Shown here one piece after another: positions 6,149 through 21,108 of a DNA stretch of 64,000 nt (positions are counted from its first letter, which is position 1; each line of letters opens with the position of its first letter). Below the pieces are notes generated by a model that was not told the origin of the DNA, did no database searches, and worked only from the letters and a program-made list of their open reading frames with translations. Made by a program: the position numbers and the translations under genes. The DNA comes from Minisyncoccota bacterium (GTDB taxonomy: Bacteria; Patescibacteriota; Minisyncoccia; Phycocordibacterales; UBA1006): positions 10,708-74,707 of the forward strand of contig JAJOIF010000001.1 in NCBI GenBank assembly GCA_021209525.1, written 5' to 3'.

Positions 6149-6149
6149 T

Positions 6150-6803
6150 ATGCACATGAATATGCGACAACTCGCGATGCGTGCACTCATCATTCTCGCT
6201 TTGGTGGGGCTCCTCTTGCTCCTTTCATGGGCAAGTAAACAAGAACGCGCACCGCGAAACACTACGAATCAACCATTAATTACCGATAGCTCATCATTTG
6301 ATCTCACCAATATGCATACACAAAAACTTACCCTACAAACTACTCTCGGACCTATTACCTTGGAACTCTTTTCTGAATTAGCACCTCAAACAGTGAATAA
6401 CTTTGTCACTCTCGCAGAGAGCGGTTTTTATGATGGTGTTGTCTTTCACCGTGTTATTGAAAATTTCATGATTCAATCAGGTGATCCTCAATCAAAAGAA
6501 GAATCATTGCGTATGCAATGGGGAACAGGGGGTCCAGGATATACATTTGAAGACGAAATTCATGCACAAAATCGCAATGTTGTAGGAACTATTGCTATGG
6601 CAAATGCTGGACCTAATACCAATGGTTCACAATTCTTTATCAATGTTGCGGATAATAGTTTCCTCGACACCAAGCACACTGTCTTTGGTCGTGTTATTGA
6701 AGGTATGGATGTTGTTATGGCGATTTCTCAAGTAGAAACACTTCCTAATGATCAGCCTATTGATTCTGTAGTCATTACTCAGATTACTGCTGTGGTGGAA
6801 TAA
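6150..6803 (+). CDS. Peptidyl-prolyl cis-trans isomerase, cyclophilin type, membrane-anchored
   Basis: N-terminal TM helix followed by the cyclophilin motifs FHRVIENFMIQSGDP, GGPGYTFEDE and NGSQFFI. The start was trimmed to the ATG at 6150 so that it no longer overlaps truB-hpf. Confidence 0.85.
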   Translation: MHMNMRQLAMRALIILALVGLLLLLSWASKQERAPRNTTNQPLITDSSSFDLTNMHTQKLTLQTTLGPITLELFSELAPQTVNNFVTLAESGFYDGVVFHRVIENFMIQSGDPQSKEESLRMQWGTGGPGYTFEDEIHAQNRNVVGTIAMANAGPNTNGSQFFINVADNSFLDTKHTVFGRVIEGMDVVMAISQVETLPNDQPIDSVVITQITAVVE

Positions 6804-6814
6804 TATCACCGTAC

Positions 6815-6841
6815 ACAAAAAACCGCTTGTGCGGTTTTTTG
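6815..6841. terminator. Bidirectional rho-independent terminator between the cyclophilin gene and ruvA
   Basis: AAAAAACCGC-TTGT-GCGGTTTTTT hairpin with A/T tracts on both sides. Confidence 0.6.
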
Positions 6842-6848
6842 TTGCTCA

Positions 6849-7421
6849 TTATGGGCGCATAGCACCGAGCGCTCTTTTGATGCGTTCTTGGGTGCTCGTA
6901 ATGTCTTGGGGGATATCTTTGAGTGCATCTCGTGATTGCTGGAGCGAATAGCCGAGTGCTTGGAGTGCTTCGACGACTTCATTGTCTTGGTGCATGGCGG
7001 CGCCATAGCGATCGTCTTTGAATGTCGTCATCTTGTCTCGTAATTCTACAATAATTTTTTCTGCAGTACGCTTGCCAATACCTGAGACTTTAGTGAGATA
7101 AGAAATATCATCATGCGCAATTGCTTTTTGAAGTGTTTCCAAAGATGCAATATCAATAATACCGAGAGCTGATCGTGGTCCAATACCTGACACACCGAGC
7201 AACATTTCAAAAAATACAAGGTACTGCATATCTTGAAAACCAAAGAGCTCCATAGAGGTTTCGCGTACCGCCAAATGAGTCCAGAGAGCAGCGTCTTGCC
7301 CTTCGGCGAGCGTCATGAGAATACCCTGAGGAACAAAGATTTCATAACCAGTACCATGTACATCAAGGATGACTGATTTGTCTGTGCGCGCATATATGGT
7401 TCCGCGGAGGTGTCGTATCAT
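6849..7421 (-). CDS. ruvA: Holliday junction DNA helicase subunit RuvA
   Basis: 190 aa. The N-terminal MIRHLRGTI...VILDVHGTGYEIFVP and the HhH motifs are typical of RuvA. Confidence 0.85.
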   Translation of the reverse strand: MIRHLRGTIYARTDKSVILDVHGTGYEIFVPQGILMTLAEGQDAALWTHLAVRETSMELFGFQDMQYLVFFEMLLGVSGIGPRSALGIIDIASLETLQKAIAHDDISYLTKVSGIGKRTAEKIIVELRDKMTTFKDDRYGAAMHQDNEVVEALQALGYSLQQSRDALKDIPQDITSTQERIKRALGAMRP

Positions 7422-7621
7422 AGGTCTTTAGTATACGGCAGGAAAGGGAACTATACAAGGTGTCATGTTATTATTCTCAATACTCTGACGCCTTGCATTG
7501 AGCGAGGACTGCACCCCGGGCAGGGTCCAGAGGTGGTTCATTGGGGTAAGGAATATACTGTAGATACTCTATGATGCAAAATACTTGCTTTTTTGTGATA
7601 TTTGCTATTATTACCCGTGTT

Positions 7622-7888
7622 ATGCCAAATATCAAAGCAGCAAAAAAATCAGTACGCTCTGACGAACGAAAACGAATCTTTAATGATCGTCGCCGTCGTG
7701 CTATGCGTCAAACCGTAAAGCGTTTTGTTGAGCTCGTTGCTCAAAAGAATGCAGCTGAAGCAAAGGCTATGGTTCCAGAACTCTATGCGAACATAGACAA
7801 AGCAGTCAAGCGCGGTGTGATCAAAGCAAACACTGGAGCACGCAAAAAATCACGACTTATTGCAACACTTAAAAAAGTAGAAGCATAA
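7622..7888 (+). CDS. rpsT: 30S ribosomal protein S20
   Basis: MPNIKAAKKSVRSDERKRIFNDRRR... matches the S20 N-terminus. The start was moved to the internal ATG at 7622. Confidence 0.85.
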   Translation: MPNIKAAKKSVRSDERKRIFNDRRRRAMRQTVKRFVELVAQKNAAEAKAMVPELYANIDKAVKRGVIKANTGARKKSRLIATLKKVEA

Positions 7889-7945
7889 GTATACACAGAC
7901 ACACCTTCTACGGTGTGTTTTTGTATGGTATACTGATATCTATCT

Positions 7946-8692
7946 ATGGAAGATATTCCAACACTTATGGATGCTGTAGGATTGCTCGGTCAATTGTCGT
8001 ATTGGGGTATTTTTGGACTGTCTCTTTTGGCGAATATCTTGATTCCTGTACCCGAAGAAGTATTCTTGCTCGCTCTTGGATATATTTCAGGAGGCGATGC
8101 ACCTGCAGTGAATCCATACCTGACGACCTTGATTGTGATTCCAGGACTTTTGATCAGCGACCTATTTCTCTATAGTCTTGCCCGTTCAGGGAACAAGTAT
8201 ATTGCGATTCTTGAAAAGAAACTGCAGAACTTTAAATTTACGCGCGATCGTGAATTTGTAGAAAAACATATCATCAAGATTATCGTCATCTCACGATTCA
8301 TTGTGCAATTTCGTTTTATGGGTCCTGTTCTTGCGGGGACGACCAATATTTCACGCGCCCGTTTTTTGGCGTGGGATGCATTCGCGCTCTTTATTTATGT
8401 GCCGATGATGATTGGTATTGGGAATTATTTCCATGCGCGTATATCTCAAGTAATTCAAGGTATTGCTTTGGTCAAGAATTACATTCTTATTGCTGTGAGT
8501 GTGATGATTTTTGTGTGGCTGGCACGAAAGATTCGCGCACTTTTCTTTGCGCGCTTTATTTTTGCATTGTCACAACCGCGCGGATATGTAGACACTATGA
8601 TTCCTGGACTCAAAAAACGAGTATATTCTGAATGGCAAGAAGTATGTCCTCCAGACCAAGATCAAGAGCTGTCTACAGACGAGATAAGGTAG
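7946..8692 (+). CDS. DedA/SNARE-associated family membrane protein
   Basis: Multi-TM protein with a DedA-like VPEEVFLLALGY motif. Confidence 0.55.
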   Translation: MEDIPTLMDAVGLLGQLSYWGIFGLSLLANILIPVPEEVFLLALGYISGGDAPAVNPYLTTLIVIPGLLISDLFLYSLARSGNKYIAILEKKLQNFKFTRDREFVEKHIIKIIVISRFIVQFRFMGPVLAGTTNISRARFLAWDAFALFIYVPMMIGIGNYFHARISQVIQGIALVKNYILIAVSVMIFVWLARKIRALFFARFIFALSQPRGYVDTMIPGLKKRVYSEWQEVCPPDQDQELSTDEIR

Positions 8693-8731
8693 ACCCTTGT
8701 TTTTATAAAAAATAGCTATTATATATACATC

Positions 8732-8806
8732 GATCCCGTAGTTTAATGGATAGAACATCAGCTTGCGGAGCTGACGATGCAAGTTCGATTCTTGCCGGGA
8801 TCACCA
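8732..8806 (+). tRNA. tRNA-Arg (anticodon GCG by hand folding), CCA encoded
   Basis: Cloverleaf GATCCCG/CGGGATC acceptor stem, TTCGATT T-loop and TTGCGGA anticodon loop. The anticodon assignment is less certain than the tRNA call itself. Confidence 0.7.
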
Positions 8807-8846
8807 AAGAGAGAGCTAGTTCGAGCACTCGAGAAGGGTCGAATAG

Positions 8847-8886
8847 CAACTAAAAAGCAGGTTAGTAATAACTTGCTTTTTAGTTG
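8847..8886. terminator. Strong hairpin immediately 3' of tRNA-Arg
   Basis: CAACTAAAAAGCAG / CTTGCTTTTTAGTTG forms a 13-bp stem. It lies at the left edge of the AT-rich island. Confidence 0.5.
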
Positions 8887-8906
8887 TAGTTTAATACAAC
8901 GATCTG

Positions 8907-8915
8907 TGCTATAAT
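8907..8915 (+). promoter_or_regulatory. Extended -10 element (TGCTATAAT) driving the HTH-hsdM operon, probably producing a leaderless transcript
   Basis: TGnTATAAT ends 6 nt before the GTG start codon at 8922. Confidence 0.4.
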
Positions 8916-8921
8916 ATATCT

Positions 8922-9128
8922 GTGAAAGACGAATCAAAAAAACTGGGTGAAAATCTCAGAAAAATCAGAACAAAAAAAGACATTACTCAAACAGGTCTTG
9001 CAGAGGCGTTGGGGGTTGATAAGTCTTTTATAAGTAATATAGAAAATGGAAAAACAAATCCAACTCTTTCAACCATTACTAGTATAGCCAAAGCTCTTGG
9101 TGTGTCATCTAATGAATTACTAAAATAA
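8922..9128 (+). CDS. XRE-family HTH transcriptional regulator (possible controller protein of the R-M operon)
   Basis: 68 aa containing TQTGLAEALGVDKSFISNIENGKTNPTLSTITSIAKALGV, a classic Cro/C1 HTH. Confidence 0.75.
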   Translation: MKDESKKLGENLRKIRTKKDITQTGLAEALGVDKSFISNIENGKTNPTLSTITSIAKALGVSSNELLK

Positions 9129-9132
9129 CTTT

Positions 9133-10716
9133 ATGAGTAAAGATAAAACAAATTTAAATACAACCAAAGAACAAGAGCGATCTGAGCTTCACCGTGCCAT
9201 TTGGCAAATTGCCAATGATCTTCGTGGCAGTGTTGACGGTTGGGATTTTAAACAATATGTTTTAGGAATACTTTTTTATAGATTTATCAGTGAAAACCTT
9301 ACAAATTACATCAACATAGACGAAAGACGATCTGGTAAAAAAGATTTTGATTACGCAACTCTATCAGATAAAGAGGCAGAATTTGGTCGTGCTGATACGG
9401 TAAAAGAAAAAGGTTTCTATATATTACCAAGTGAGCTTTTTGTAAATGTTCGTAAAAATGCCAGAAATGATGCAAACCTAAACGAAACATTATCATCTGT
9501 TTTTAATAATATTGAAAATTCTGCAAAAGGTTTTGACAGTGAAGATGATCTAAAGGGATTGTTTGATGACTTGGATGTGAACTCAAATAAGCTTGGTGGA
9601 TCGGTAGAAAAAAGAAATCAAAAACTTGTAAAGCTTCTTGAAGCAATTGGAGATCTTCGTCTTGGTGATTATGGAGACAATACTATCGATGCATTCGGTG
9701 ATGCGTATGAATTTCTAATGACCATGTATGCTTCAAATGCTGGTAAATCTGGAGGCGAATTTTTTACTCCTCAAGAAGTGAGTGAACTTTTGGCAGAAAT
9801 CACAACTGTTGGTAAAAAAGAAGTAAATAAAGTTTATGACCCATGTTGTGGTTCTGGTTCGCTTCTTCTTAAATTTGCAAAAGTACTTGGTAAAGAAAAC
9901 GTACGACAAGGTTTTTATGGTCAAGAAATAAACCTAACTACATACAATCTTTGTCGTATTAACATGTTCTTGCACGATATTAATTACAATAACTTTGATA
10001 TTGCTCACGGTGACACCCTTACAGACCCGAAGCATTGGGACGATGAACCATTTGACGCCATAGTTTCTAATCCTCCGTATTCAATCAAGTGGGATGGTGA
10101 CGCTAATCCTATTATGATTAATGATCCTCGTTTTTCTCCTGCTGGAGTTTTGGCTCCAAAAAGTAAAGCTGATTTGGCATTTACTATGCATATGCTTTCG
10201 TGGCTTTCTACCAGTGGAACGGCGGCGATTGTTGAATTCCCTGGAGTTCTTTATCGTGGCGGTGCTGAAGCAAAAATCCGTAAATATTTAATTGATAATA
10301 ACTATGTTGATGCAGTGATACAGCTCCCGCCCGATCTTTTCTTTGGTACTACAATTGCTACTTGTGTTGTTATCCTAAAGAAAAGCAAAAAAGATAATAA
10401 AACTTTGTTTATAGACGCTTCTGCTGAATTTGTGAGAGGTGGGAATAAAAACAAATTAAGTGGAGAAAATCGAAAGAAAATCCTTAATGCTTTTATTGAA
10501 AGAAAAGACATCGAACATTTTGCAAAAATCATAGACAACAAAGCTATCGCAGAAAATGATTACAATCTAGCAGTTTCTAGTTATGTGGAGCAGAAAGATA
10601 CGAGAGAGGTGGTGGATATAAAAGAGCTGAATAAAGAAATTGAGAGAATTGTAAAAAGACAAAGTGAGTTAAGGTCAGCAATTGATGAGATTGTTAATGA
10701 AATTGAAAATAAATAA
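9133..10716 (+). CDS. hsdM: Type I restriction-modification system DNA methyltransferase subunit HsdM
   Basis: 527 aa with the N-terminal HsdM_N region, the SAM motif DPCCGSGSLL and the N6-adenine motif IV VSNPPYS. Confidence 0.9.
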   Translation: MSKDKTNLNTTKEQERSELHRAIWQIANDLRGSVDGWDFKQYVLGILFYRFISENLTNYINIDERRSGKKDFDYATLSDKEAEFGRADTVKEKGFYILPSELFVNVRKNARNDANLNETLSSVFNNIENSAKGFDSEDDLKGLFDDLDVNSNKLGGSVEKRNQKLVKLLEAIGDLRLGDYGDNTIDAFGDAYEFLMTMYASNAGKSGGEFFTPQEVSELLAEITTVGKKEVNKVYDPCCGSGSLLLKFAKVLGKENVRQGFYGQEINLTTYNLCRINMFLHDINYNNFDIAHGDTLTDPKHWDDEPFDAIVSNPPYSIKWDGDANPIMINDPRFSPAGVLAPKSKADLAFTMHMLSWLSTSGTAAIVEFPGVLYRGGAEAKIRKYLIDNNYVDAVIQLPPDLFFGTTIATCVVILKKSKKDNKTLFIDASAEFVRGGNKNKLSGENRKKILNAFIERKDIEHFAKIIDNKAIAENDYNLAVSSYVEQKDTREVVDIKELNKEIERIVKRQSELRSAIDEIVNEIENK

Positions 10717-10717
10717 T

Positions 10718-11326
10718 ATGAAAAAAGGAATTATATATATAATGACAACTGCCGTTTCTGGTCTAATAAAAATCGGACAATCTGGAATAAATAATTTTCA
10801 AGAGAGAATGAGATTTCTTGAAGCCAATGGTTATTATAATGTTGTAGGATTAAAAAGATTTTTTGCAATTGAACTTGATGATTATGTAGATAAAGAAACT
10901 TTACTTCACGATATTTTTGAAAAACACAGAGTCGGTGAAAGTGAATTATTTGCTCTTGATCAAGAATTAGTCCGCCAACTACTCCTTTCGTTTGAAGGAA
11001 AAATCATTTACCCTGAAAATATTAACCAGGCGAAAGAATTTGATGAAGTTACAGAGATTAGAAAACAAGGAAAATTATTTAGTTTTTATAAAAAAGGATT
11101 AAAGAATGGAGATGAGATTCTCTTTATAAAAGACAAAAATATCAGTGCGAAAATTTGTGGAGAAAGAGAAGTAGAATATCAAGGTCAGATTTGGAAATTG
11201 TCACCGTTAGCATATAGGATCTTTGAACAACGTGGTGAGCTTAATACTAGTGGAGCTTATCAGGGTGCCAACTATTTTGAATACAATGGTAAAAAATTAA
11301 AAGATATTCCCGATAAAGTATTATGA
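10718..11326 (+). CDS. T5orf172-domain (GIY-YIG superfamily-like) protein embedded between hsdM and hsdS
   Basis: GIIYIMTT...GLIKIGQS...ERMRFLE...FAIELDD...LHDIFEKHRVGESELF follows the T5orf172 pattern. The start is 1 nt after the hsdM stop and the stop overlaps the hsdS start. Confidence 0.55.
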   Translation: MKKGIIYIMTTAVSGLIKIGQSGINNFQERMRFLEANGYYNVVGLKRFFAIELDDYVDKETLLHDIFEKHRVGESELFALDQELVRQLLLSFEGKIIYPENINQAKEFDEVTEIRKQGKLFSFYKKGLKNGDEILFIKDKNISAKICGEREVEYQGQIWKLSPLAYRIFEQRGELNTSGAYQGANYFEYNGKKLKDIPDKVL

Positions 11327-12528
11327 AAAAAAACCAATCCAAAATTGAAAAACTAATTTCAGAACTATGCCCTAATGGTGTGGAGTTTAAAATGCTTGGA
11401 GAACTAGAAGATGACAGTTTGATTAAACTTGGACGTGGAAATGTAATTTCAAAAAATGATATTTCTAATACTCCTGGTGATTTTCCTGTTTATTCCTCAT
11501 CAGCAAACGGAGAGGGAGAATTTGGAAGATATGGCAAGTTTATGTTTGATGACGAAAGAATAACATGGTCAATTGATGGTGGTGGTAGATTTTTCTATAG
11601 GTTCCCACACAAATATTCTGTAACAAATGTATCTGGGTGGTTAAAAGTAAATGATAATAATGTAATAAATACGCGTTATCTATATTTCGTTTTATCAAAT
11701 GCTTGGCTAACAAAAGTTTTTGATTATACAAAAAAAGCTCATCCTTCAGTAATTAGAGAGGAGTACAAAATCCCCATCCCACCCCTTGCAATACAAGAAG
11801 AAATTGTAAAAATTCTTAATAGTTTTACAGAGCTAGAAGCAGAGCTAGAAGCAGAGCTAGAAGCAAGAAAGAAGCAATATGAACATTATCGTGCACAACT
11901 CTTAACATTCCCAGAGGGGGGGGTACAATGGGTTAGGCTCAGTGATATTGGCACTATGATAAGAGGAAGTGGATTACAAAAAAAAGATTTTACAGAAACC
12001 GGAGTCGGATGCATTCATTATGGTCAAATTTATACATACTACGGGACTTTTGCAGATAAAACAAAATCATTTGTGTCTCCAGAATTGGCAAAGAAATTAA
12101 AGAAAGCTCAAAATGGTGACGTATTAATTGCTGGTGTCAGCGAAAATATTGAAGATGTATGCAAACCTTTGGGTTGGCTAGGTGGTGAAATTTGTATAAG
12201 TGGCGACATGTTTGCATTTCGTCATAATCAAAATACTAAATTTTTAACATACTTATTACAGACTCCGAATTTTCAAAAGTATAAAGAGAGATTTGCTCAC
12301 GGGACTAAAGTAATCCGAGTAAAAGTGGATAAAATTTTGGACTACAAAATTCCTGTGCCGTCACTTCAAGAGCAGGAACGCATCGTTTCAATCCTCGATA
12401 AATTTGATGCACTTGTGAATGATATTTCAATCGGTTTACCTGCCGAACTTAAGGCACGCAGGTCGCAATATGAGTATTATCGGGCAAAATTACTAACTTT
12501 TAAACCTGTAGAGCGTATGGCGATATAA
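11323..12528 (+). CDS. hsdS: Type I restriction-modification specificity subunit HsdS
   Basis: Two target recognition domains separated by a central conserved region (ELEAELEAELEARKKQYEHYRAQLLTF), plus the C-terminal conserved repeat (ELKARRSQYEYYRAKLLTF). Confidence 0.85.
   Translation: MKKNQSKIEKLISELCPNGVEFKMLGELEDDSLIKLGRGNVISKNDISNTPGDFPVYSSSANGEGEFGRYGKFMFDDERITWSIDGGGRFFYRFPHKYSVTNVSGWLKVNDNNVINTRYLYFVLSNAWLTKVFDYTKKAHPSVIREEYKIPIPPLAIQEEIVKILNSFTELEAELEAELEARKKQYEHYRAQLLTFPEGGVQWVRLSDIGTMIRGSGLQKKDFTETGVGCIHYGQIYTYYGTFADKTKSFVSPELAKKLKKAQNGDVLIAGVSENIEDVCKPLGWLGGEICISGDMFAFRHNQNTKFLTYLLQTPNFQKYKERFAHGTKVIRVKVDKILDYKIPVPSLQEQERIVSILDKFDALVNDISIGLPAELKARRSQYEYYRAKLLTFKPVERMAI
11830..11865 (+). 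repeat. Perfect 12-bp x3 tandem repeat (GAGCTAGAAGCA) inside hsdS encoding (ELEA)x3
   Basis: Read directly from the sequence. It is in frame within the hsdS central conserved spacer region. Confidence 0.9.
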
Positions 12529-12603
12529 ATACGCTCTACAGGGAAGTTAGTTTACATTGGTCTTGCTAATATAAACAAAATAGTATAAAATGTTTACATT
12601 GAT

Positions 12604-13782
12604 ATGAATAATATAAACCAATCAAAAATAGGACGATATATACAGCAAAAAGAAGGATATAAATCCTTTACGCCTTTTGAATTTCCACCAAAGGATGGTT
12701 TTGTTATTAGTACTAAACTTTACAAAAAACACGAGGAAGCTATTAGACTCGTTGGCAAATTAGATGGTATTACGCGCTTACTTCCAGATAAGGATTATTT
12801 TACTTTTATGTTCGTTGTAAAAGATGCAACATATTCAAGTCAAATTGAAGGGACAAAAGCAACCATGCAAGATGCAGTAGCCGCGCCGATAATTGAAGAA
12901 AAAAATCGCAAGGCTAGTGATGTGGATGATATTGAACATTATATCAAGGCAGCCAATTATGGGATTGAGAGAATCAAAGAATTTCCAATTTCACTTCGTT
13001 TTATTCGTGAATTGCATGAAAAACTCATGACTGACGCACGTTCTACTCATCATGCATATCCGGGACAATTTAGAACTTCTCAAAACTGGATCGGTGGTAA
13101 GACTCCTGCTGATGCTTCTTTTGTTCCACCAGCGCCAGATGATATGAAAAAATCTCTTGATGATCTGGAAAAATTCATTCACAAAAACGATGATTATCCC
13201 TCTTTGATTAAGGCGGGACTTTTGCATGCACAATTTGAAACTATTCACCCGTTTACTGATGGTAATGGACGCACTGGGCGTATACTTATCGCAATGTATA
13301 TACACTATGCAGGACTTTTGGAAGAGCCGGTGTTGTATCTTTCTAGTTATTTCAAAAAGTATCAAAAACTCTACTATCAAAAATTGCAAGGGTATCATGA
13401 TGATGAATCCGATATTGACGGTTGGCTCCTGTTTTTCCTTGAAGGAATAATTGAGATAGCAAACTCTAGTATTGAAACATGTACAAAGATCACAGAACTT
13501 CGCGATCGGGATTTTGCAAAGATGCAAAAGCTTGGTAAAAAGTCCGCCGAGTCAACACTTGAAATTGTTCGCAAGTTATATAGCCAGCCAATTGTAGGGG
13601 TAGCAGAAATAATGAAATGGACAGGATTTACTGCTCCTGGTGCATACAAGGTAATTGAAAGACTCAGAGATTTAAAAATTCTTGAGCCTCTTGGTGATGC
13701 AGATTATGATCAAAAATATGTCTATGCCGATTATTATGAATTATTTGATGAGGTGTTTAAAGAAGGTCGCAAAAAGAAATAA
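12604..13782 (+). CDS. Fic/DOC family protein (putative AMPylase-type effector) between hsdS and hsdR
   Basis: Canonical Fic motif HPFTDGNGRTGR within IHPFTDGNGRTGRILIAMYI, a Fic_N-like N-terminus and a C-terminal winged-helix-like tail. Confidence 0.85.
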   Translation: MNNINQSKIGRYIQQKEGYKSFTPFEFPPKDGFVISTKLYKKHEEAIRLVGKLDGITRLLPDKDYFTFMFVVKDATYSSQIEGTKATMQDAVAAPIIEEKNRKASDVDDIEHYIKAANYGIERIKEFPISLRFIRELHEKLMTDARSTHHAYPGQFRTSQNWIGGKTPADASFVPPAPDDMKKSLDDLEKFIHKNDDYPSLIKAGLLHAQFETIHPFTDGNGRTGRILIAMYIHYAGLLEEPVLYLSSYFKKYQKLYYQKLQGYHDDESDIDGWLLFFLEGIIEIANSSIETCTKITELRDRDFAKMQKLGKKSAESTLEIVRKLYSQPIVGVAEIMKWTGFTAPGAYKVIERLRDLKILEPLGDADYDQKYVYADYYELFDEVFKEGRKKK

Positions 13783-13784
13783 TT

Positions 13785-16700
13785 ATGACTAAAACCAACA
13801 AATACAATTTAGTTGCAGAAAATACACAAAGCACGGTTGTCGCCGAGTATGTTTCTGATGTCAAAAGAGTTTCGCAATATCAGAGCGAAGATGCTTTAGA
13901 AAAAGCTTTTATTCAGCAACTAGAATCTCAGGCATATGAATATTTAAATATTACTTCTGAAAATGATCTTATTCTTAATCTACGCAAACAACTAGAAAAA
14001 TTAAATAGTTATACTTTTTCTGATACAGAATGGGAAAGATTTTTTACAAGCGAGCTAGCAAATCCAAATCAAAGTATTGAAGAAAAAACCGCTACTATCC
14101 AAGAAGATAGCACCAAAATATTAAACAAAGATGACGGTACTTTTAAAAATATTGATTTAATAGACAAGAAAAATATTCATAACAATAGTCTGCAAGTTAT
14201 CAATCAATACACAACAGAAGACGGACAAAGATCTAATCGTTATGATGTGACGGTATTGGTAAATGGATTGCCACTTATTCATATTGAATTAAAACGCCGT
14301 GGAGTTGCTATTCAAGAAGCATTTAATCAGATAAATAGATATCAAAGAGAGAGTTTTTGGGCTTCAAGTGGTCTTTTTGAGTATGTGCAATTGTTTGTTA
14401 TCTCTAACGGCACACATACGAAATATTACAGTAATACAACCAGATCGCAGCACATTAAAGAAGCTCAAGAGGGTTCTAAAAATAAAGGCAAGAAAACAAG
14501 CAATAGCTTTGAATTTACGAGCTGGTGGGCAGATGCTACTAATCGCCCTATTACTGATCTAATGGATTTTGCAAAAACATTTTTTGCAAAACATGCGATT
14601 TTAAATATACTGACGAAGTATTGTGTATTTACGACTGATCGTCTATTGCTCGTGATGCGACCGTATCAAATTGTTGCAACTGAAAGAATTTTAAATCGCA
14701 TCGAAGTAAGTACAAATTATAAAAAGCTTGGCACTACTGAAGCAGGTGGCTATATTTGGCATACCACAGGATCTGGAAAGACTCTAACGAGTTTTAAAAC
14801 TGCACAATTGGCAAGTAAATTGTCATATGTCGATAAAGTGTTGTTTGTAGTTGATCGTAAGGATTTGGATTATCAGACAATGAAAGAGTATGACAAGTTT
14901 GAAAAAGGTGCGGCAAACAGTAATACCAGCACTTCAGTTTTAAAGAAACAGCTTGAAGACTCAAATTCTCGAATAATTATAACCACTATCCAGAAGCTTG
15001 ATAGATTTATTGCGAAAAACTCTGGGCATACTATTTTTGATGGTCATATCGTAATTATTTTTGATGAATGCCACCGATCACAATTTGGTGAAATGCATGC
15101 AGGAATTGTTAAGGCATTTAAAAATTATCATTTGTTTGGATTTACTGGAACTCCGATATTTTCTAAAAATGCTTCAGCTGGTGGTAGACCCGATTTTAAA
15201 ACCACAGAGCAGGCTTTTGGTGAGAAATTGCACACTTATACAATAGTTGATGCTATTTCTGACAAAAATGTTTTGCCGTTTAAGGTTGATTATGTTTCTA
15301 CGGTTCGTGAAGCGGAAAACATAGAAGATGCGAAAGTAAAAGATATTGATCGTGAGGCAGTTTTATCAGCACCCGAGCGTTTAGAAAATATTGTTCGCTA
15401 TATTCGTGAACACTTTGATCAAAAAACCAAACGAAATAGTTTTTATAAAATCCAAGACAGAAGGCTGGCAGGATTTAATTCTATATTTGCAGTTTCTTCC
15501 ATTGATGTAGCTAAAAAATACTATCTTGAATTTAAAAAACAGTTAGCGGATGAACCAAGTGATAAAAAGTTAAAGGTTGCCACAATATTTAGTTTTGGGG
15601 TAAATGATGAGGATGCAGATGGGATGATTGATGAGAATTCCGAAGATACCAGTGGTCTTGATGTAAGCTCTAGAGATTTTCTGGAAAGTGCAATTAAAGA
15701 CTACAACAAAATGTTTGGAACCTCTTATGATACGTCGTCTGATAAATTTCAAAATTACTATAAAGATGTAAGTGAGAAAGTGAAGAAAAGAGAAATTGAT
15801 ATTTTGATTGTGGTTAATATGTTTTTGACTGGGTTTGATGCAACTACACTTAACACGCTTTGGGTAGATAAAAATCTTCGTTTACATGGATTATTGCAAG
15901 CATATTCAAGAACGAATCGTATTTTAAATAGTGTTAAAACTTTTGGAAATATTGTTTGTTTTAGAAATTTAGAAAAAGCTACCAATGAAGCAATCGCACT
16001 CTTTGGAGACAAAGAAGCTGGTGGAATTGTATTACTTAAAGCATATGAGGATTATTACAATGGGTATAAAGATGGCGATAAAGAAATACGAGGATACAAG
16101 AGCCTTGTAGATGAATTGCTTGAAAAATTCCCCGTTGGAGAAAGAATTGTTGGAGAACAAAATCAAAAAGACTTTATAAAGTTATACGGAGCGATTTTGA
16201 GAGTGAAAAATATTTTGACTACTTTTGATGAATTTACTGGTAATGAAATATTATCTCCTCGTGATGTGCAGGATTATCACAGTATGTATATCGATCTATA
16301 CAATGAATTCCGCAAAACTGATGATTCTGAAAAAGAAAATATCAATGATGATATTGTCTTTGAAATGGAGCTTATTAAGCAAGTCGAGATTAATATTGAT
16401 TATGTACTAGGTCTTATTAAGAAATACCATGAGGATCATGTTTTGAACAAAGAGCTTCTCGTGGATATTAATAAAGCGATTGATTCGAGTGTGGAATTGC
16501 GTAATAAAAAAGATTTAATCAATCAGTTTATTACTTCTCTTGATGTTCATTCTATTGTTGATGAAGATTGGCAAAAATTTGTAGAAGAGAAAAAAGTCCA
16601 AGAATTAGAGCAAATTATTGAAACTGAAAATCTTGATCCTGAAGCTACATATAAATTTATACAAAATGCTTTCAGGGACGGAAATGTGCCAACAACAGGA

Positions 16701-16853
16701 ACGGCGATTAGTAAGGTTTTACCGCCAGTTTCTAGGTTTTCTCCTACTGGTGAAAGAAGTCAAAAAAGAGAAAGTGTATTGAATAAATTAACTAAATTTT
16801 TTGAAAGATTTTTTGATATTTCTGGAGGTAAATTTACATCTAATGAAAATTAA
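13785..16853 (+). CDS. hsdR: Type I restriction enzyme endonuclease/translocase subunit HsdR
   Basis: 1022 aa with an N-terminal nuclease region, SF2 helicase motifs (GSGKT Walker A and the DECH box IIFDECHRS) and a C-terminal HsdR domain. Confidence 0.9.
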   Translation: MTKTNKYNLVAENTQSTVVAEYVSDVKRVSQYQSEDALEKAFIQQLESQAYEYLNITSENDLILNLRKQLEKLNSYTFSDTEWERFFTSELANPNQSIEEKTATIQEDSTKILNKDDGTFKNIDLIDKKNIHNNSLQVINQYTTEDGQRSNRYDVTVLVNGLPLIHIELKRRGVAIQEAFNQINRYQRESFWASSGLFEYVQLFVISNGTHTKYYSNTTRSQHIKEAQEGSKNKGKKTSNSFEFTSWWADATNRPITDLMDFAKTFFAKHAILNILTKYCVFTTDRLLLVMRPYQIVATERILNRIEVSTNYKKLGTTEAGGYIWHTTGSGKTLTSFKTAQLASKLSYVDKVLFVVDRKDLDYQTMKEYDKFEKGAANSNTSTSVLKKQLEDSNSRIIITTIQKLDRFIAKNSGHTIFDGHIVIIFDECHRSQFGEMHAGIVKAFKNYHLFGFTGTPIFSKNASAGGRPDFKTTEQAFGEKLHTYTIVDAISDKNVLPFKVDYVSTVREAENIEDAKVKDIDREAVLSAPERLENIVRYIREHFDQKTKRNSFYKIQDRRLAGFNSIFAVSSIDVAKKYYLEFKKQLADEPSDKKLKVATIFSFGVNDEDADGMIDENSEDTSGLDVSSRDFLESAIKDYNKMFGTSYDTSSDKFQNYYKDVSEKVKKREIDILIVVNMFLTGFDATTLNTLWVDKNLRLHGLLQAYSRTNRILNSVKTFGNIVCFRNLEKATNEAIALFGDKEAGGIVLLKAYEDYYNGYKDGDKEIRGYKSLVDELLEKFPVGERIVGEQNQKDFIKLYGAILRVKNILTTFDEFTGNEILSPRDVQDYHSMYIDLYNEFRKTDDSEKENINDDIVFEMELIKQVEINIDYVLGLIKKYHEDHVLNKELLVDINKAIDSSVELRNKKDLINQFITSLDVHSIVDEDWQKFVEEKKVQELEQIIETENLDPEATYKFIQNAFRDGNVPTTGTAISKVLPPVSRFSPTGERSQKRESVLNKLTKFFERFFDISGGKFTSNEN

Positions 16854-16861
16854 AAAATTAT

Positions 16862-18328
16862 ATGAATACTGTTTGTATATTAAAAAATTTTCTAGAGTAC
16901 GAGCCATTACCTGAATTAATGCAAGGTGCAGGAATAGCAATTATTACACTGTTAATATCATTTGCTATTGGTATTTTGATACATCATTTAGGAGATAAAG
17001 AACGCAAGGGTGGTTTTCTAGATATTCATGTAGCGTTAGATTATGTTTGGCGTTTTAAACAATCCTTATTTCTAATAGTAATAGTCGTTGTATCACCATT
17101 TTTATTTGCATTTGAAAGCTTAAATATAAAAGCTTTGGTTTTCATAGTTTGGTCTATTTCTATTACTTTATTAATTTATATTAATATTCGATTATATTAC
17201 TGGGTTAAAGGAGATAAAGATGATTTTAGAAAAAAATATCTTTCAAATTTTCCAAAATCACCTAGAGATAAAATTGTTTCTTGGGGAGATTTTTGGAGTA
17301 CCGATATTAATAAGGGTAAAAGATTTACTGAGCCAGATTTTTTCTCAATTTTCTCTAAAGAAATTGATGCATTGTTAATCTCAAATAATAAAGAAGATTG
17401 GGAAACAGTGTTAAAGTTATTAGATGATTTTGTAGATAAAATTGAACTTAGAAATAAAACTTTTCTTGTAGTACTTGATGAATTCTTTCCGAAAATTCTT
17501 GAATGGCATTACTTTCTATGGGAGAAACAATTTACTCAGTATTCAATCGAATTAGGAAAAGAAAATCCTAAAATTGATACATATTTATTTCAAATAGATC
17601 AGCTTATAGATAAAATAATTAAATTTATTACCAATAGTGCGCTAACTACAGGTAATGCCTTTTCATATTTTGATAGACTAAAAAATCATATTGAAAAATA
17701 TGAAGACAAAAATATAGTAGGAGCTAAATTGACATATGAATATATACAACAAATTCCTATTTATGAAGATTGTTTAAATTTGACTTCAAAATCCCCAGAA
17801 GCTTATGATATCTGGAATCATTATTTCCCAGAATCATGGAAGATAACGATTAGTAATCTTGAGAAAAATAAAATATCATGGATTTGGTATGATAGATTTT
17901 TAAATTGGTCTCAATCTAGGATTTGGAATGAAAAAGAAGAATGGGATAAAGATTTAGATGAGGTCGCAAAATCACTTTTCCCAGAGGTTGATCCTATAAC
18001 GTGGGCAAAAATTTATACTTTCGTAATTAGACCGTTTTCAAACGACAGAATGAAATCAATTATAGAAAGTAAGGTAAATTTTGGTTATGTGGGACGCGTA
18101 TATTCTGGTTGGGGCGATGATATGGAAACTAGTTTTGCAAAAAAACAGCAAGAAGAACTTGAAAATACAATTAAGCTAGCTAAATATTTATTCGGTAAAG
18201 TTTTTACAAAGGAAAATATCGACAATTGGATAAAAGAACTTGAAAAATTAGAGTATCTTAAAGATTCAGATGAAAATAGAAAAAAGGAATACTGGAAAGC
18301 CTTACTGGGTAAACTAAAAAATAATTAA
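16862..18328 (+). CDS. Hypothetical membrane-anchored protein (3 N-terminal TM helices plus a ~380 aa cytoplasmic helical domain) immediately downstream of hsdR
   Basis: TM segments are predicted from hydrophobic stretches. No domain was recognised. It lies on the same strand, 9 nt after the hsdR stop. Confidence 0.5.
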   Translation: MNTVCILKNFLEYEPLPELMQGAGIAIITLLISFAIGILIHHLGDKERKGGFLDIHVALDYVWRFKQSLFLIVIVVVSPFLFAFESLNIKALVFIVWSISITLLIYINIRLYYWVKGDKDDFRKKYLSNFPKSPRDKIVSWGDFWSTDINKGKRFTEPDFFSIFSKEIDALLISNNKEDWETVLKLLDDFVDKIELRNKTFLVVLDEFFPKILEWHYFLWEKQFTQYSIELGKENPKIDTYLFQIDQLIDKIIKFITNSALTTGNAFSYFDRLKNHIEKYEDKNIVGAKLTYEYIQQIPIYEDCLNLTSKSPEAYDIWNHYFPESWKITISNLEKNKISWIWYDRFLNWSQSRIWNEKEEWDKDLDEVAKSLFPEVDPITWAKIYTFVIRPFSNDRMKSIIESKVNFGYVGRVYSGWGDDMETSFAKKQQEELENTIKLAKYLFGKVFTKENIDNWIKELEKLEYLKDSDENRKKEYWKALLGKLKNN

Positions 18329-18334
18329 TATAAT

Positions 18335-18622
18335 TTACCCCTTAATCTTAACTCTACTATTTATCAAGGATAGTTCACTACTAATACACTCTAGCACTGA
18401 TCTTTGCTCTAACGCTGAACCCTCTTTCAATACAAATTTAGCATAGTCTTTCAGGTCTATCGTTTCAATTTTTTCAGTTTTCTTTTTACCTAAAAACATC
18501 GCTTGTAATTTTTTAAATTTCTGAATTTCACTATTTAATTTAGAGGTAAGCTGTACTTTATTTAAACTTAAGGTATCAATCATTTTTAGAAGTGCTTCTA
18601 TAAGGTCTGGAAGGTACCCCAA
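18335..18622 (-). pseudogene. C-terminal fragment of a large serine recombinase (coiled-coil tail only)
   Basis: DLKDYAKFVLKEGSALEQRSVLECISSELSLINSRVKI aligns with the tail of the 31783-32262 recombinase fragment ([36 protein letters not shown]). The catalytic domain is missing. Confidence 0.5.
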
Positions 18623-18638
18623 AATTCAGACACCTTTT

Positions 18639-19693
18639 CTACGTACGTTCATCATATATCAGCACTTCTTTCTCTGCAAATTGTAGGGGCGCCATACCCA
18701 ACACAGAGTGTATCCTTCTTCGATTGTAATAGTTGATGGTCTTGTAGATTTCAGCTACAAGCTCACCAAGTGTTTCAAATCGATTAGGATCTCCAAGGTC
18801 TAGCTTGAACCCTTTGTAAAAGGATTCTTGATAGCCATTCTCCCAGGGACATCCAGGCCTACTCATGGATTGTTGTATACCTAGTTTCTGAACAAGAGCA
18901 GTGTAGTCTTTTGAGGTATACTCACTTCATTGGTCTGAGTGAATGATTCTCGGTGGTGCACGATGGAGTACAGCATTAAGTAATGCATTCATCACAAGCT
19001 GTGTAGCATGAGTGGTCAGAATAGCTACCCCTACAATCTCTCTGGTATATACATCAATGACCCTAGTAGGATAGATCCATTTCCCTTGAAACTTGAGGTA
19101 GGTGAAGTCAGATGCATAGATATCTCCCCTCCCACGAGGTGTCTCAAACAACAAGAGATTTGAGAAGATACTGTCTTTTGTCTTGTATACAAAGGGTTTC
19201 TTGGTGTATCTACGATATGGCTTGATACCAAAGATCTTCATGACTCTAAGTATTCGTTTCTTGTTGATTTTCAAGTGGAGTGCAAGACGCTTGTGGCCAT
19301 ATCCTGGATGTTCACGTAACACTTCTTCAATCATTTGCTTCGTCCTCCAGTCTTTAAGAGGTTGCTTGTGTTGATAGTACTGATGGGTTCGTTTGATACC
19401 TATGCGAGTACCATCTATACTTAGGCTCTTGAGGGCCCCTTTTTAGCCTCCATAGACATACGAATGGTAAGTTCTCCAATCAATCTCTTTAACTCTTCAT
19501 TCTCCTTCTTGAGCTTATTGTGAACTAATACACTCACTGAACCCTTGGCTTTGTTCCCAAGCCATGAGTAGATCGTAACAGTACTCACTCCAATATTCTG
19601 TGCTGCTTGGGCAACGCTGATACCTTGATGTTTGATACGGTTAATAGTTTCTTCTTTGATTTCTTTTGAGATTTTGAATTTCTTTTTGGACAT
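18639..19693 (-). mobile_element. Degenerate IS3-family insertion sequence. orfA (19421-19693) is intact, but orfB is N-terminally truncated and split by an in-frame TGA (18927-19334 plus 18639-18866)
   Basis: OrfA has an HTH plus a leucine zipper (IS3/IS911 type). The OrfB pieces carry DDE-integrase motifs (IIHSDQ, GCPWENGYQESF, YNxxRxH). The orfA/orfB overlap is lost. TGA is a genuine stop codon here because prfB is present. Confidence 0.7.
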
Positions 19694-19815
19694 ATATGTA
19701 TTCTATATTAATTAATAATTACATAGAATAGTTGTCTGAAGAAAGGGGTACCTTTCTCACCTAATAAAAACACCCCGCATGATGTATACGGGGTGTGGTT
19801 ATTAAGCAAATAACC

Positions 19816-20109
19816 CTATTTTTTCTTGCAATGACCGCTCAGTGTATCTTCTTCTGTTTCATATCCAAATGAGAAAAATGTGATCATGAAAAGAAGAATG
19901 ACATACATGAATCCCATAAGCATGGTCTGGGGATAGGTGTAAATACTTTCCATATGGTCAGTGAATTCATACCAAGCGAGTCCCATGAAGACAGAAATAC
20001 CAATGGCGCATATAATATATACGCATATGCGGATACTTCTGTTTTTATCAGCATACAAAAGAGGTGCGAGCATGCACCCGAATACTATTGTCAAATAAAT
20101 GAGTCCCAT
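19816..20109 (-). CDS. Hypothetical small membrane protein (3 TM)
   Basis: Call based on hydrophobicity alone. Confidence 0.35.
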   Translation of the reverse strand: MGLIYLTIVFGCMLAPLLYADKNRSIRICVYIICAIGISVFMGLAWYEFTDHMESIYTYPQTMLMGFMYVILLFMITFFSFGYETEEDTLSGHCKKK

Positions 20110-20132
20110 GGTTTATTTTTTTGGTGAGTAAT

Positions 20133-20609
20133 TTATTCCCAATCAAGCATTTCTAGATTTTCAAAAAGAAAATGCAATGAATGCTTGCCAACAAGAGACA
20201 TCACAGTTTTTTTATGTAGTGTCTCAGTGTCGTAGTTTTGTAATGCGTCAAATGCGTCCTGATTATCAAAACGCACCATTATTGCAGTGCAATCCTCGGT
20301 GCATCCCATTTTGATGTAGTCAGATTCGATGGTCATTTGTTTGGTTGCCCATTTTTCAGATGCGGGCATGCTTAACAATTTCATAATCTTGTCAAAAAAG
20401 CTATCCGGCTCATTTGCTTCAGAAATTTTTTCTCTGTAGATGAATGAAAAAGAAGTTATCTTTTTTTTGATAATCTCAGAAAAGGGTAGGGCTACCCCTT
20501 GTGAGTTTGTAAAGTACACCTCATCTTCTATGATAGTACGGTGCGTGTTACCTAAGCGGTTCAACGTTATATTCATAATGGTAAAGTTTTGTTTGTGATA
20601 TAGTAACAT
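20133..20609 (-). CDS. Hypothetical protein
   Basis: 158-aa ORF with no recognisable motif. Confidence 0.3.
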   Translation of the reverse strand: MLLYHKQNFTIMNITLNRLGNTHRTIIEDEVYFTNSQGVALPFSEIIKKKITSFSFIYREKISEANEPDSFFDKIMKLLSMPASEKWATKQMTIESDYIKMGCTEDCTAIMVRFDNQDAFDALQNYDTETLHKKTVMSLVGKHSLHFLFENLEMLDWE

Positions 20610-20705
20610 ATATAAATTATCTCGTCAATTTTTGTAACATTGCGGAGCTGAGAAACATGTTGCAGGTATACAAAAACCGCCACCATGTGACGGTTTCTGT
20701 GTATG

Positions 20706-21108
20706 TGGAGATGGGCGGAGTCGAACCGCCGTCCATGAACATCCCTGAGCAACATCTACGAGTGTAGATGTATTTTTTATATCTATGCAAATAGATAATC
20801 TCAACACCGCCACCTTTAAAATACTCGAAACAGTAGCAGTGTCTATCTTGATGATTTAAAAGATATGTTCAAGAGGCGCATATCTTCGAGTGTAGGTATA
20901 TGACATCACGATCCTCTCTCTACACACAAGAGGCGCGACGACATCGCATTATATTATGCGAATGCTGGCGTAAATCCAAATGCTGAAGCATAAGGGCTTA
21001 CTACTTTCTTTGCGTTTGCACTTAAAGAAGTGTGGTCGATTTACGAGTATACCACAACTCGACCCGCATTACTCAGGGGGATTGTACATGTCGAAGCCAG
21101 ACATCCCC
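20706..21108 (-). ncRNA. ssrA: tmRNA (SsrA)
   Basis: The 5' end GGGGATGTCTGGCTTCGACATG matches the tmRNA consensus GGGG.UG.UUCUGG.UUCGAC. The 3' end GGTTCGACTCCGCCCATCTCC-A forms a tRNA-like T-arm and acceptor with the 5' end. The internal reading frame GCA AAC GCA AAG ... GCA TTC GCA TAA gives the tag ANAKKVVSPYASAFGFTPAFA. smpB is adjacent. Confidence 0.75.

Follow-up and report, generated by a model that had tools for sequence, protein, structure and literature searches.

A Defense Island behind tRNA-Arg in a Minisyncoccota Genome as the Probable Remnant of a Large Serine Recombinase Element

SCCmec, the staphylococcal cassette chromosome (SCC), and the Enterococcus cassette chromosome rely on large serine recombinases (LSRs), integrate where a conserved gene has its 3′ end, form tandem cassettes, and carry type I restriction-modification (R-M) and other antiphage cargo (PMC11470126, PMC6222049). 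In the tycheposons of Prochlorococcus, 474 of 501 elements carry tyrosine recombinases (bioRxiv 10.1101/2020.12.28.424599). For the Patescibacteria (candidate phyla radiation [CPR]), which have tiny genomes, very few mobile elements have been defined, and the exchange of defense genes is little known. Here, we analyze a stretch of 64,000 nucleotides (nt), called the window throughout, from a Minisyncoccota bacterium of the GTDB lineage Patescibacteriota, Minisyncoccia, Phycocordibacterales, UBA1006 (assembly GCA_021209525.1, contig JAJOIF010000001.1, positions 10,708 to 74,707 of the forward strand). In this window, a block of defense genes lies between the genes for tRNA-Arg(GCG) and transfer-messenger RNA (tmRNA; ssrA), whose 3′ ends point toward each other. 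In our judgment, positions 8807 to 18607 (Table 1) are probably the immobilized remnant of an LSR integrative element that inserted right after the discriminator base of tRNA-Arg(GCG). Contigs and loci used for comparison are referred to by the letter L and a number.

TABLE 1 Features of the island and of its boundaries in the window
Feature	Position	Strand	Evidence or remark
tRNA-Arg(GCG)	8732..8806	+	ARAGORN and Rfam (70 bits); intact; proposed integration target
Left-end junction AAGA and conserved 34-nt motif GAGAGCTAGTTCGAGCACTCGAGAAGGGTCGAAT	8807..8844	+	Metagenome motif copies
Hairpin (A-tract, stem, T-tract), element-borne terminator	8847..8886	+	18-bp arms, 94% complementary
Palindromic operator GTTGTA-N6-TACAAC (8883-8900) and TATAAT (8910-8915)	8883..8915	+	6 nt before GTG at 8922
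68-aa Xre/C-protein-like HTH protein	8922..9128	+	Pfam HTH_3 (7.6e-19); PADLOC Control_protein, HTH_VI
hsdM, type I R-M methyltransferase	9133..10716	+	TIGR00497 (781 bits); Pfam N6_Mtase, HsdM_N
GIY-YIG/T5orf172-like (PDC-S57) gene in R-M operon	10742..11326	+	PADLOC PDC-S57 (2.4e-54); Pfam MUG113
hsdS, two target recognition domains	11323..12528	+	Pfam Methylase_S, two stretches; PADLOC Specificity_I
Fic/SoFic-like gene between hsdS and hsdR	12604..13782	+	Pfam Fic, Fic_N; PADLOC SoFic (2e-105)
hsdR, full length, EcoR124-type C terminus	13785..16853	+	Pfam HSDR_N, ResIII/SWI2_SNF2, T1R_D3, EcoR124_C; PADLOC REase_I (1182 bits)
488-aa all-alpha protein with N-terminal hydrophobic helices, last cargo gene	16862..18328	+	Uncharacterized family
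LSR C-terminal remnant, last ~86 codons	18335..18607	-	tblastn to LSR_L078 residues 338-423, 74% identity
Decayed IS3-family copy	18608..19759	-	Pfam HTH_Tnp_1, rve, rve_3
IS3 orfA and split rve	19421-19693 (orfA); 18927-19334 (135 aa) and 18639-18866 (75 aa)	-	
Two orphan ORFs (97 aa with predicted membrane helices; 158 aa) and terminator hairpin	19760..20704	-	GC 0.37
tmRNA (ssrA)	20703/5..21108	-	ARAGORN and Rfam (142 bits); apparent ancestral neighbor, apparently not the attachment site

The left end of the proposed element is a conserved module that occupies the 115 nt past the tRNA and comprises a motif, a hairpin, and an operator, followed by a small helix-turn-helix (HTH) gene. By alignment, the ~36 nt right after the tRNA are common to the window and the more distant locus L042, where the motif likewise follows tRNA-Arg(GCG), but not to the closer relative L039; the motif is present at the same tRNA in neither L039 nor L046. 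A metagenome scan with the exact 24-nt motif core GAGAGCTNGTTCGAGCACTCGAGA gave 71 exact matches in 70 contigs, with no exact match in IMG/VR, and this core can serve as a practical annotation marker for such islands. In ~40 contigs, a complete tRNA gene immediately precedes the motif, with a few nt (usually 4) between its ...CAC(CA) and the motif. That gene is mostly tRNA-Glu(CTC/TTC), with tRNA-Arg(TCT/CCT) in three cases; the arrangement recurs at several tRNA species. The other copies follow a tRNA 3′ fragment, a pseudo-tRNA unit (described below), or other sequence, or lie too near the start of their contig. At one tRNA-Glu with an identical 90-nt upstream sequence, L100 and L052/L115 carry two elements that diverge exactly after GGGATCAC. 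The motif was also inspected as a possible tRNA-like T-arm or tmRNA 3′-end fragment, and no consistent pairing or similarity emerged; Rfam holds no family for the motif or for the pseudo-tRNA unit.

More than 20 loci can be aligned as DNA with the backbone at 8798 to 9160. HTH copies, 67 to 90% identical, occur at +110 to +315 from the motif in 16 loci and farther off in 6 more. A strong hairpin (-15 to -36 kcal/mol) occupies the same position in 38 of 59 unique family copies with varied stem sequences, and its retention with so many different stems points to a structurally conserved terminator. The first-pass annotation had already drawn attention to a strong hairpin in the window, which is indeed there, but it begins 40 nt past the tRNA rather than directly behind it. 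A simple terminator scan missed this hairpin because of its AT-richness; it is the element's own terminator, neither a feature of the tRNA nor an att site. The operator half-sites, read by eye, are invariant in ~17 of 20 backbone-type loci while the spacer varies; they are one base off in two (L091 and L114) and degenerate in L082. Across the family, the operator lies ~9 nt before a TATAAT or TATACT box and the start codon 6 to 9 nt after that box, a distance so short that it implies a predicted leaderless mRNA for the HTH gene.

Clustering of the open reading frames (ORFs) near the motif brought out a family of LSRs, of which the window keeps only the last ~86 residues, within a 95-amino-acid (aa) ORF on the minus strand (18335-18622). 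In seven loci (L048, L072, L073, L078, L111, L114, and L117), intact LSRs of ~425 aa that contain Resolvase, Recombinase, and Zn_ribbon_recom domains are encoded on the opposite strand, 4.4 to 10.5 kb from the motif. They are 24 to 28% identical to phage LSRs, and their nearest solved relatives are SPbeta SprA/YokA and TP901-1. Homology to the family is observed at both ends of the island core in the window. In intact members, the architecture runs from the tRNA 3′ end through variable nt (usually 4), the motif, the terminator hairpin, the operator/promoter, and the HTH gene to variable defense cargo, the opposite-strand LSR, and a conserved right end with a finish like that of a tRNA 3′ end. 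Past the LSR start, the intact right end reads ..TTAATGACAGAACC..TGCATAGCTATGCAGAAC..CATACTCGCG, in several elements with ..GAAGGCTTAGCA as its finish, a sequence similar to that at which the pseudo-tRNA unit ends. This right end is conserved in 7 to 10 intact elements, and none of its motifs was found near the island in the window; the left end is the same in more than 40 independent tRNA contexts.

LSR relatives were also found in five contigs of IMG/VR. The minimal element L119 carries no cargo and consists of tRNA-Glu, AGAGTC, GAGTGCTAGTTCGAGCACTCGACAAGG, a hairpin, and the LSR. Diverged LSRs (75 to 76% identity) are paired with diverged motifs (2 to 4 mismatches); in L120, for example, a motif with 4 mismatches accompanies an LSR of 75% identity. 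This joint variation of motif and LSR is our main argument that the motif is a recombinase site, and we lean toward a reading in which it represents the recombinase half of the attachment site. Compared by eye for dyad symmetry, the left motif and the right end show only weak similarity, on which we base no claim.

In several contigs, the motif is preceded by a unit of ~100 to 130 nt, TGTCACTTTTGTCAC..CTCGAGAAGGGTCG..TGATATACT..AGCCTTACAGGGCAA..GGTTCTATCTCGAGAAGGCTCACCA, whose last ~45 nt resemble the 3′ half of a tRNA and which we call the pseudo-tRNA unit. With a hidden Markov model built for the unit, over 30 copies were detected among the loci retrieved. Motif, ORF, and unit form arrays of a single orientation behind a tRNA gene (tRNA, then motif-ORF-unit, motif-ORF-unit, ORF, and so on), as in L042, L063, L068, L074, L079, L085, L086, L089, and L103. 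Four types of junction all occur: tRNA to motif, pseudo-tRNA to motif, pseudo-tRNA to other sequence, and tRNA to other sequence. Several of the junctions between a unit and other sequence keep only the first ~9 nt of the motif. Together, the four junction types and the partial motifs form the pattern that a crossover at or just after ...CAC(CA)NNNN would give. Where a pseudo-tRNA-to-motif junction lies within a contig, it could be a tandem junction or an attP-like one. One single-gene cassette in L042 (1364-2260) comprises tRNA-Arg(GCG), the motif, a cyclodipeptide synthase gene, a pseudo-tRNA unit, and a second motif, which indicates that cassettes are not confined to defense genes.

The same features can be read in another way, with motif, hairpin, and pseudo-tRNA units serving as RNA-level expression or processing signals, that is, as tRNA-like punctuation and a shared 5′ leader that includes a ribosome-binding site, while the LSR acts elsewhere. 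We judge this unlikely. It agrees with the position of the motif in seven loci (L049, L054, L066, L071, L077, L079, and L112), where it ends 5 to 25 nt before an ATG with GAGAAGG in the Shine-Dalgarno position, but the shift of the motif sequence along with LSR divergence, and an element such as L119 reduced to motif, hairpin, and LSR, speak against it. Pseudo-tRNA units hold a TGnTATACT extended -10-like box, always before a co-oriented ORF, and the motif, lying upstream of the terminator, would be co-transcribed with the tRNA; on the other side, all four half-site combinations occur, as expected for a junction crossover. Acceptor-like pairing in the pseudo-tRNA unit, inspected by hand, is poorly kept across copies, which also speaks against this reading, and we claim no RNA fold for the unit. 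The RNA-level and recombination roles of the motif can coexist.

Returning to the remnant of an LSR element, its truncation coincides with the insertion sequence (IS) listed in Table 1. Homology to the IS copies of L117 and L061 begins exactly at 18608, and the copy has terminal inverted repeats of the form TG...CA (TGGAAGGTACCCC.. and ..GGGGTACCTTTCTCA). The copy abuts LSR codon ~338, and right of the IS there is no LSR sequence. The 3- to 4-bp target-site duplication of IS3 elements was not seen, the flanks being ..GGTC on one side and CCTA.. on the other (GTC versus CCT). Such flanks are consistent with an adjacent deletion, and this would account for the missing first ~337 codons of the LSR; insertion of IS3 into the LSR gene followed by such a deletion would be the simplest reading of the truncated gene. 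The split rve ORFs of this copy recur in independent assemblies. Related IS3 copies (~71% amino acid identity, with the same GGTACCCC-containing ends) lie in or beside the LSR gene in L060/L069, at ~+2480 to +3200 from the motif, and in L117/L061, so at least three independent elements, counting the window, have been hit. The recurrence of IS3 in or near the LSR suggests a target preference or repeated selection to immobilize islands.

The first-pass annotation regarded the 3′ ends of both RNA genes as attB sites bracketing one island and proposed a search for direct repeats of them. No second copy of the tRNA-Arg 3′ end (last 24 nt) or of the tmRNA 3′ end (last 27 nt) occurs in the window at ≤3 mismatches. 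The only shared 12-mer, TTGCGGAGCTGA, at 8763 in the tRNA anticodon arm and at 20640, 53 nt from the tmRNA end, was rejected as an att relic: ~0.25 chance matches are expected for the space searched, so the match lies within chance expectation, its flanks at 20640 do not continue the tRNA, and the tRNA 3′ half would not fit there. Strand exchange by serine recombinases takes place at a 2-bp core, and no long direct repeat results from it. The window lacks an att repeat because its recombinase is an LSR, and the absence of such repeats, being expected, is no argument against an island here.

To place the two RNA genes, we turned to relatives. The GTDB representatives are too distant (SmpB ≤54% identity), and in them only the RecG-tRNA-Ile-FtsH-SmpB-ssrA side is kept. 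The closer relative L039, whose VTT protein is 65% identical, was reached via TruB and VTT/DedA protein anchors. Its gene order is PGA_cap, RNB, HATPase, TruB, S30AE, PPIase, RuvA, S20, VTT, tRNA-Arg(GCG), ssrA, SmpB, FtsH, and the interval from tRNA-Arg to ssrA measures 2.6 kb and holds five small genes, none related to genes of the window. The synteny comparison proposed by the first-pass annotation thus finds the pair of RNA genes retained in a relative with different genes between them. By alignment, homology between the window and L039 stops at ...GGGATCAC (acceptor stem, discriminator, and one C) on one flank and at the tmRNA 3′ end on the other. In L039, tRNA-Arg ends ...GGGATCAC and continues with ATAG, without CCA. 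Only two of the five tRNA genes of the window encode CCA, and the encoded CCA of its tRNA-Arg was probably contributed by the element. L042 and L046 have yet other genes after the same tRNA. In L080, 1.6 kb of DNA covering HTH to hsdM is 84% identical to window positions 8798 to 10391 in a different upstream context. Among other TruB relatives, downstream synteny differs in L038 and L040, and L041 stops short of the tRNA; the exact tRNA-Arg 3′ half, used as a metagenome anchor, had zero matches in JGI contigs. From these alignments, the convergent tRNA-Arg/ssrA pair appears to be ancestral and the cargo between them not, which makes the region a variable locus; ssrA would merely be the next ancestral gene downstream of an island that appears anchored at tRNA-Arg.

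These results also bear on a classical tRNA gene (tDNA) island, in which a tyrosine-integrase element would have inserted at the ssrA 3′ end, or successively at the two RNA genes, with later decay of its integrase and att repeats. tmRNA genes are well-known integration sites (PMC4383910). The sequence 3′ of ssrA is not conserved in distant Paceibacteria loci, where RecG-tRNA-Ile-FtsH-SmpB-ssrA is, and two orphan genes lie directly beside ssrA. We nevertheless consider this origin very unlikely. None of the island ORFs of ≥50 aa has a phage_integrase domain in Pfam, NCBIfam, and PADLOC scans, and no repeat of an ssrA or tRNA fragment exists at the mismatch limit given above. The sole recombinase remnant is an LSR whose family's conserved end abuts tRNA-Arg, and L039 argues that the convergent pair is ancestral. 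At most, a tyrosine-integrase element could apply to the 0.9 kb at 19760 to 20704. The island's horizontal acquisition beside a tRNA gene stands, but the part of the earlier account in which tmRNA served as a second integration site does not, given an ssrA that is ancestral in L039 and a conserved element end that abuts tRNA-Arg only.

In composition, the core (8807-18334) is foreign, with a GC content of 0.329, compared with 0.402 to 0.448 in all other 9.5-kb windows (n = 135) of the 64-kb sequence. By tetranucleotide usage, it stands at an L1 distance of 0.369 from the remaining sequence, whereas none of 67 control windows exceeds 0.153. GC is uneven within the block between the RNA genes, the IS3 copy (0.40) and 19774 to 20704 (0.37) being near background. 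ARAGORN, Rfam, and the GC profile agree that the tRNA-Arg and ssrA 3′ ends face an AT-rich region. The earlier estimate of ~12 kb is too long, since the AT-rich part covers ~9.5 to 9.8 kb and ends at ~18.6 kb; its predicted contents, namely, the R-M/defense cargo, the serine recombinase remnant, the decayed IS3 copy, and two orphan ORFs, are all present.

AT-richness is also what an old, vertically inherited variable defense locus could show if it stemmed from the R-M genes themselves, with the 115 nt being a lineage-wide tRNA trailer and terminator. R-M and defense genes are often AT-rich, the L039 interval likewise has a GC content of 0.30 to 0.38, and the island occurs in all assemblies of the strain. 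However, the trailer is not found at the orthologous tRNA of L039 and L046, while many unrelated contigs do carry it behind various tRNA species, accompanied by the same HTH gene. Added to this are the HTH-hsdM stretch shared with L080 in another upstream context and a recombinase remnant at the expected position, and we hold vertical inheritance to be extremely improbable.

The junctions themselves are well represented: GenBank metagenome-assembled genomes labeled "Candidatus Pacebacteria bacterium" contain the same sequence, Logan assemblies from three runs are 99.9 to 100% identical to it, and together they support both island junctions. Of independent assemblies of the same strain, L029 spans window positions 1 to 10775, and L035 spans FtsH-ssrA-IS3-HsdR-HsdM. 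Short-read contigs of the strain end at 8813 (L032), 8942 (L033), 8958 (L031), and 8964 (L030), as well as at 10775 (L029) and 19819 (L034), that is, just 3′ of tRNA-Arg, at the element start, at the hsdM/PDC-S57 boundary, and beside the IS. These repeated breaks may stem from a heterogeneous population or from poor read coverage where the DNA is AT-rich.

For the LSR element that we favor, the following course of events can be proposed. The LSR would recombine a circular element with the tRNA terminus at a site formed by a pseudo-tRNA end joined to the motif. In the circular form, the right end ...GGCTTAGCA or a pseudo-tRNA ...CACCA would be joined to NNNN-GAGAGCTAG, and the crossover would fall within a few nt after ...CAC. 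The tRNA would stay intact, often gaining CCA, and no long direct repeat would be made. The element's terminator would keep tRNA read-through out of the element, and an autoregulated C-protein-like HTH protein would time expression of the cargo. At a later stage, an IS3-family element would have landed in the LSR gene of this island, and an adjacent deletion would have removed the first ~337 LSR codons together with the right end, thereby fixing the island in place.

Several points weigh against this reconstruction. The window is without a right end, so membership in the family depends on the left-end module and an 86-residue recombinase fragment, and nothing ties 19760 to 20704 to the element. 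All same-strain assemblies carry the island, with no excised circle or same-species empty site among them, and empty orthologous sites are seen only in other species (L039 and L046). Because the motif copies were gathered by means of an exact 24-nt pattern, their conservation inside it reflects ascertainment. Some motif copies follow tRNA fragments or pseudo-tRNA units, for which extra assumptions such as tandem accretion are needed. In several loci, an ORF starts right behind the motif, and GAGAAGG takes the place expected of a ribosome-binding site; we derive both the exact crossover and the function of the motif from sequence, and an RNA-level role is possible.

The cargo begins with an apparently intact type I R-M operon, as judged from its coding sequences: hsdM, an hsdS with two target recognition domains (TRDs), and an hsdR with nuclease, motor, and C-terminal domains are all full length. 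HsdM is 92% identical in amino acid sequence to its L080 homologue. Between the TRDs of HsdS lies (AELE)x3, encoded by a perfect 12-nt x3 tandem repeat (CAGAGCTAGAAG, 11828-11865). In EcoR124I, the number of TAEL repeats sets the spacer length of the recognition site, and by analogy the hsdS repeat is a candidate for slippage-driven change of R-M specificity. The PDC-S57-like ORF can be extended to a TTG at 10682 and has a 77% identical homologue in element L113; together with the SoFic-like gene, it is a PADLOC defense candidate. Two 30-nt direct repeats, 42 nt apart and 80% identical (GTTTACATTG..ATATAAAC, 12550-12621), begin shortly upstream of the Fic gene, overlap its start, and may be an internal promoter or operator of this embedded gene.

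The 488-aa protein has no match in Pfam, PADLOC, NCBIfam, PHROGs, or PLSDB plasmids and belongs to a family of 395 representative clusters at E ≤ 1e-3. Its highly confident AlphaFold2 model (pLDDT 92) shows an N-terminal bundle of hydrophobic helices and an alpha-solenoid-like body, and a comparison with the PDB gave no fold match better than E 0.17. It may be a new defense-associated membrane protein. Other family members carry an EcoRI-like methyltransferase with GmrSD/HNH, a reverse transcriptase, DUF4238, or type I R-M genes as cargo, which marks the family as a vehicle for defense genes. Beside ssrA, the 97-aa and 158-aa ORFs have no family match in Pfam, PADLOC, NCBIfam, or PHROG, and the 158-aa protein matched only itself among 5.8 billion proteins; this segment may be native or a remnant of something else, including an ssrA-linked element.

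Family elements show further associations. Among 11 elements examined that have a full-length LSR close to the L078 type (75 to 100% identity), 7 have a LOOT RNA (Rfam RF03000) 140 to 165 nt outside the LSR start and divergent from it, namely, L049, L072 (two copies), L073, L078, L111, L118, and L120. It is not found in L048, L114, L117, L119, or the window, and L122 (LSR 54% identical) has a copy 2.9 kb off. The RNA could be a part of the element, a frequent neighboring cassette, or the native neighbor of tRNA-Glu. In L114 (2921-3207), an exact 19-nt copy of the tRNA-Glu 3′ end (CGATTCTCCGTGGGATCAC) occurs 187 nt past the full gene, directly before the motif, and an inverted copy, GTGATCCCACG, lies between tRNA-Glu and this repeat. 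The arrangement resembles the trace of another, distinct integration event at this tRNA.

The window also holds a second relic at 31694 to 32262 (context 28900-36767). There, a pseudo-tRNA unit on the minus strand (31694-31802; nhmmer E = 7e-9) abuts a truncated LSR on the plus strand (31807-32250) that covers residues 280 to 425 at 37% identity and includes the Zn_ribbon_recom domain. The relic lies between tRNA-Ser(GCT) (36680-36767, minus strand) and an AT-rich stretch at 29 to 31.6 kb (GC 0.34 to 0.36) that encodes an ART-PolyVal-like protein and a methyltransferase, and it is adjoined by a GC-rich csoR-copA pair (32348-34771).

Two observations concern neighboring genes. TruB and an S30AE/RaiA-type ribosome hibernation domain are fused in one 363-aa ORF in the window (5057-6148) and also in L038, and they are two separate genes in L039, L040, and L041. 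A tRNA-Ile with anticodon UAU, an uncommon bacterial route to reading AUA, lies at 24500 to 24573, and in ~11 distant Paceibacteria loci (within L002 to L028) it is found a few kb upstream of SmpB, past FtsH.

Taken by itself, the island is an ordinary object, a decayed integrative defense element. The family to which we assign it provides a sequence-defined vehicle that targets the terminal bases of tRNA-Glu or tRNA-Arg and has conserved ends, a regulator, and a recombinase, and it lends itself to direct tests in a heterologous host. Should the recombinase and its compact sites function in the proposed way, they would offer genome engineering a new tRNA-terminus-specific family of large serine integrases. 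More tentatively, and as a possibility that we do not rate as probable, the island may be a relic of an undescribed gene-capture platform of Patescibacteria, a tRNA-anchored cassette array with a dedicated LSR. The LSR site would then combine a tRNA 3′ end or its cassette-borne pseudo-tRNA mimic on the left with the 34-nt motif on the right. Cassettes, many of them defensive and many without their own recombinase, would stack one way behind tRNA-Glu or tRNA-Arg and be swapped between hosts, and LOOT RNA might be a component of the platform. A major uncultured radiation would then have, in such arrays, its own LSR-driven counterpart to SCC elements or integrons.

A limited literature search found no description of the motif, the pseudo-tRNA unit, or tRNA-terminus LSR elements in CPR bacteria, and with its tRNA-terminus target, modular left end, and cassette arrays, the family is apparently undescribed among LSR-mediated elements. 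With SCCmec-like elements, the family shares LSRs, a place at the very 3′ terminus of one conserved host gene that is not inactivated, borders marked by short copies of the site, tandem accretion that extends to cassettes without their own recombinase, and cargo that includes type I R-M and other antiphage systems. SCCmec targets rlmH/orfX, whereas here the target is tRNA-Glu or tRNA-Arg and the hosts are Patescibacteria. A single ~425-aa LSR, at most 28% identical to phage LSRs and not close to characterized LSRs, is found here, the borders are a pseudo-tRNA unit of ~100 to 130 nt and the 34-nt motif, and the backbone carries a terminator and a presumably autoregulated HTH gene. Repeats are present at the borders but are of another kind than those of SCC-type elements, and the resemblance to SCC is functional only.

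Islander-type tDNA islands, like the island in the window, start at the 3′ end of an intact tRNA gene, differ in composition from their host, and carry defensive cargo. They have a tyrosine integrase, a displaced tRNA fragment, and a direct repeat, none of which is present here, and their junction falls inside the anticodon or T loop rather than after the discriminator. Tycheposons share with the family their occurrence in streamlined genomes, growth at the tRNA-proximal end by repeated integration, partial tRNAs between tandem elements, and the frequency of degenerate remnants; they use tyrosine recombinases and carry replication modules, whereas the elements described here have an LSR and no replication genes were seen in them. 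In integron arrays, co-oriented ORFs are likewise each followed by a conserved element, here of ~100 to 130 nt, beside a fixed anchor. Integrons, however, rely on IntI, attI, and attC; here, no tyrosine recombinase was seen, inspection showed no attC-like palindrome, the unit corresponds to a pseudo-tRNA 3′ half and has direct CTCGAGAAGG boxes, a tRNA gene serves as the anchor, and some family units hold multiple genes along with a regulator and a recombinase of their own.

The LSRs of phages and prophages (SPbeta SprA/YokA, TP901-1, phiFC1, A118, and Bxb1) have the same Resolvase, Recombinase, Zn ribbon, and coiled-coil C-terminal organization and simple att sites without long identity. The family differs from them in sequence, at the 24 to 28% identity noted above, and in its target, the tRNA terminus, and no structural or replication genes were seen in family elements, despite the five relatives in IMG/VR contigs. 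Finally, the cargo resembles type IC R-M systems (EcoR124I family) in the EcoR124_C domain of HsdR and in the 12-nt tandem repeat of hsdS that encodes tetrapeptide repeats, and it resembles C-protein-controlled R-M systems in its small upstream HTH gene, palindromic operator, and putative leaderless start. It departs from type IC systems in two respects: the HTH gene of the window belongs to the element backbone and is found elsewhere with unrelated cargo, and the operon interleaves the PDC-S57-like, SoFic-like, and 488-aa protein genes.

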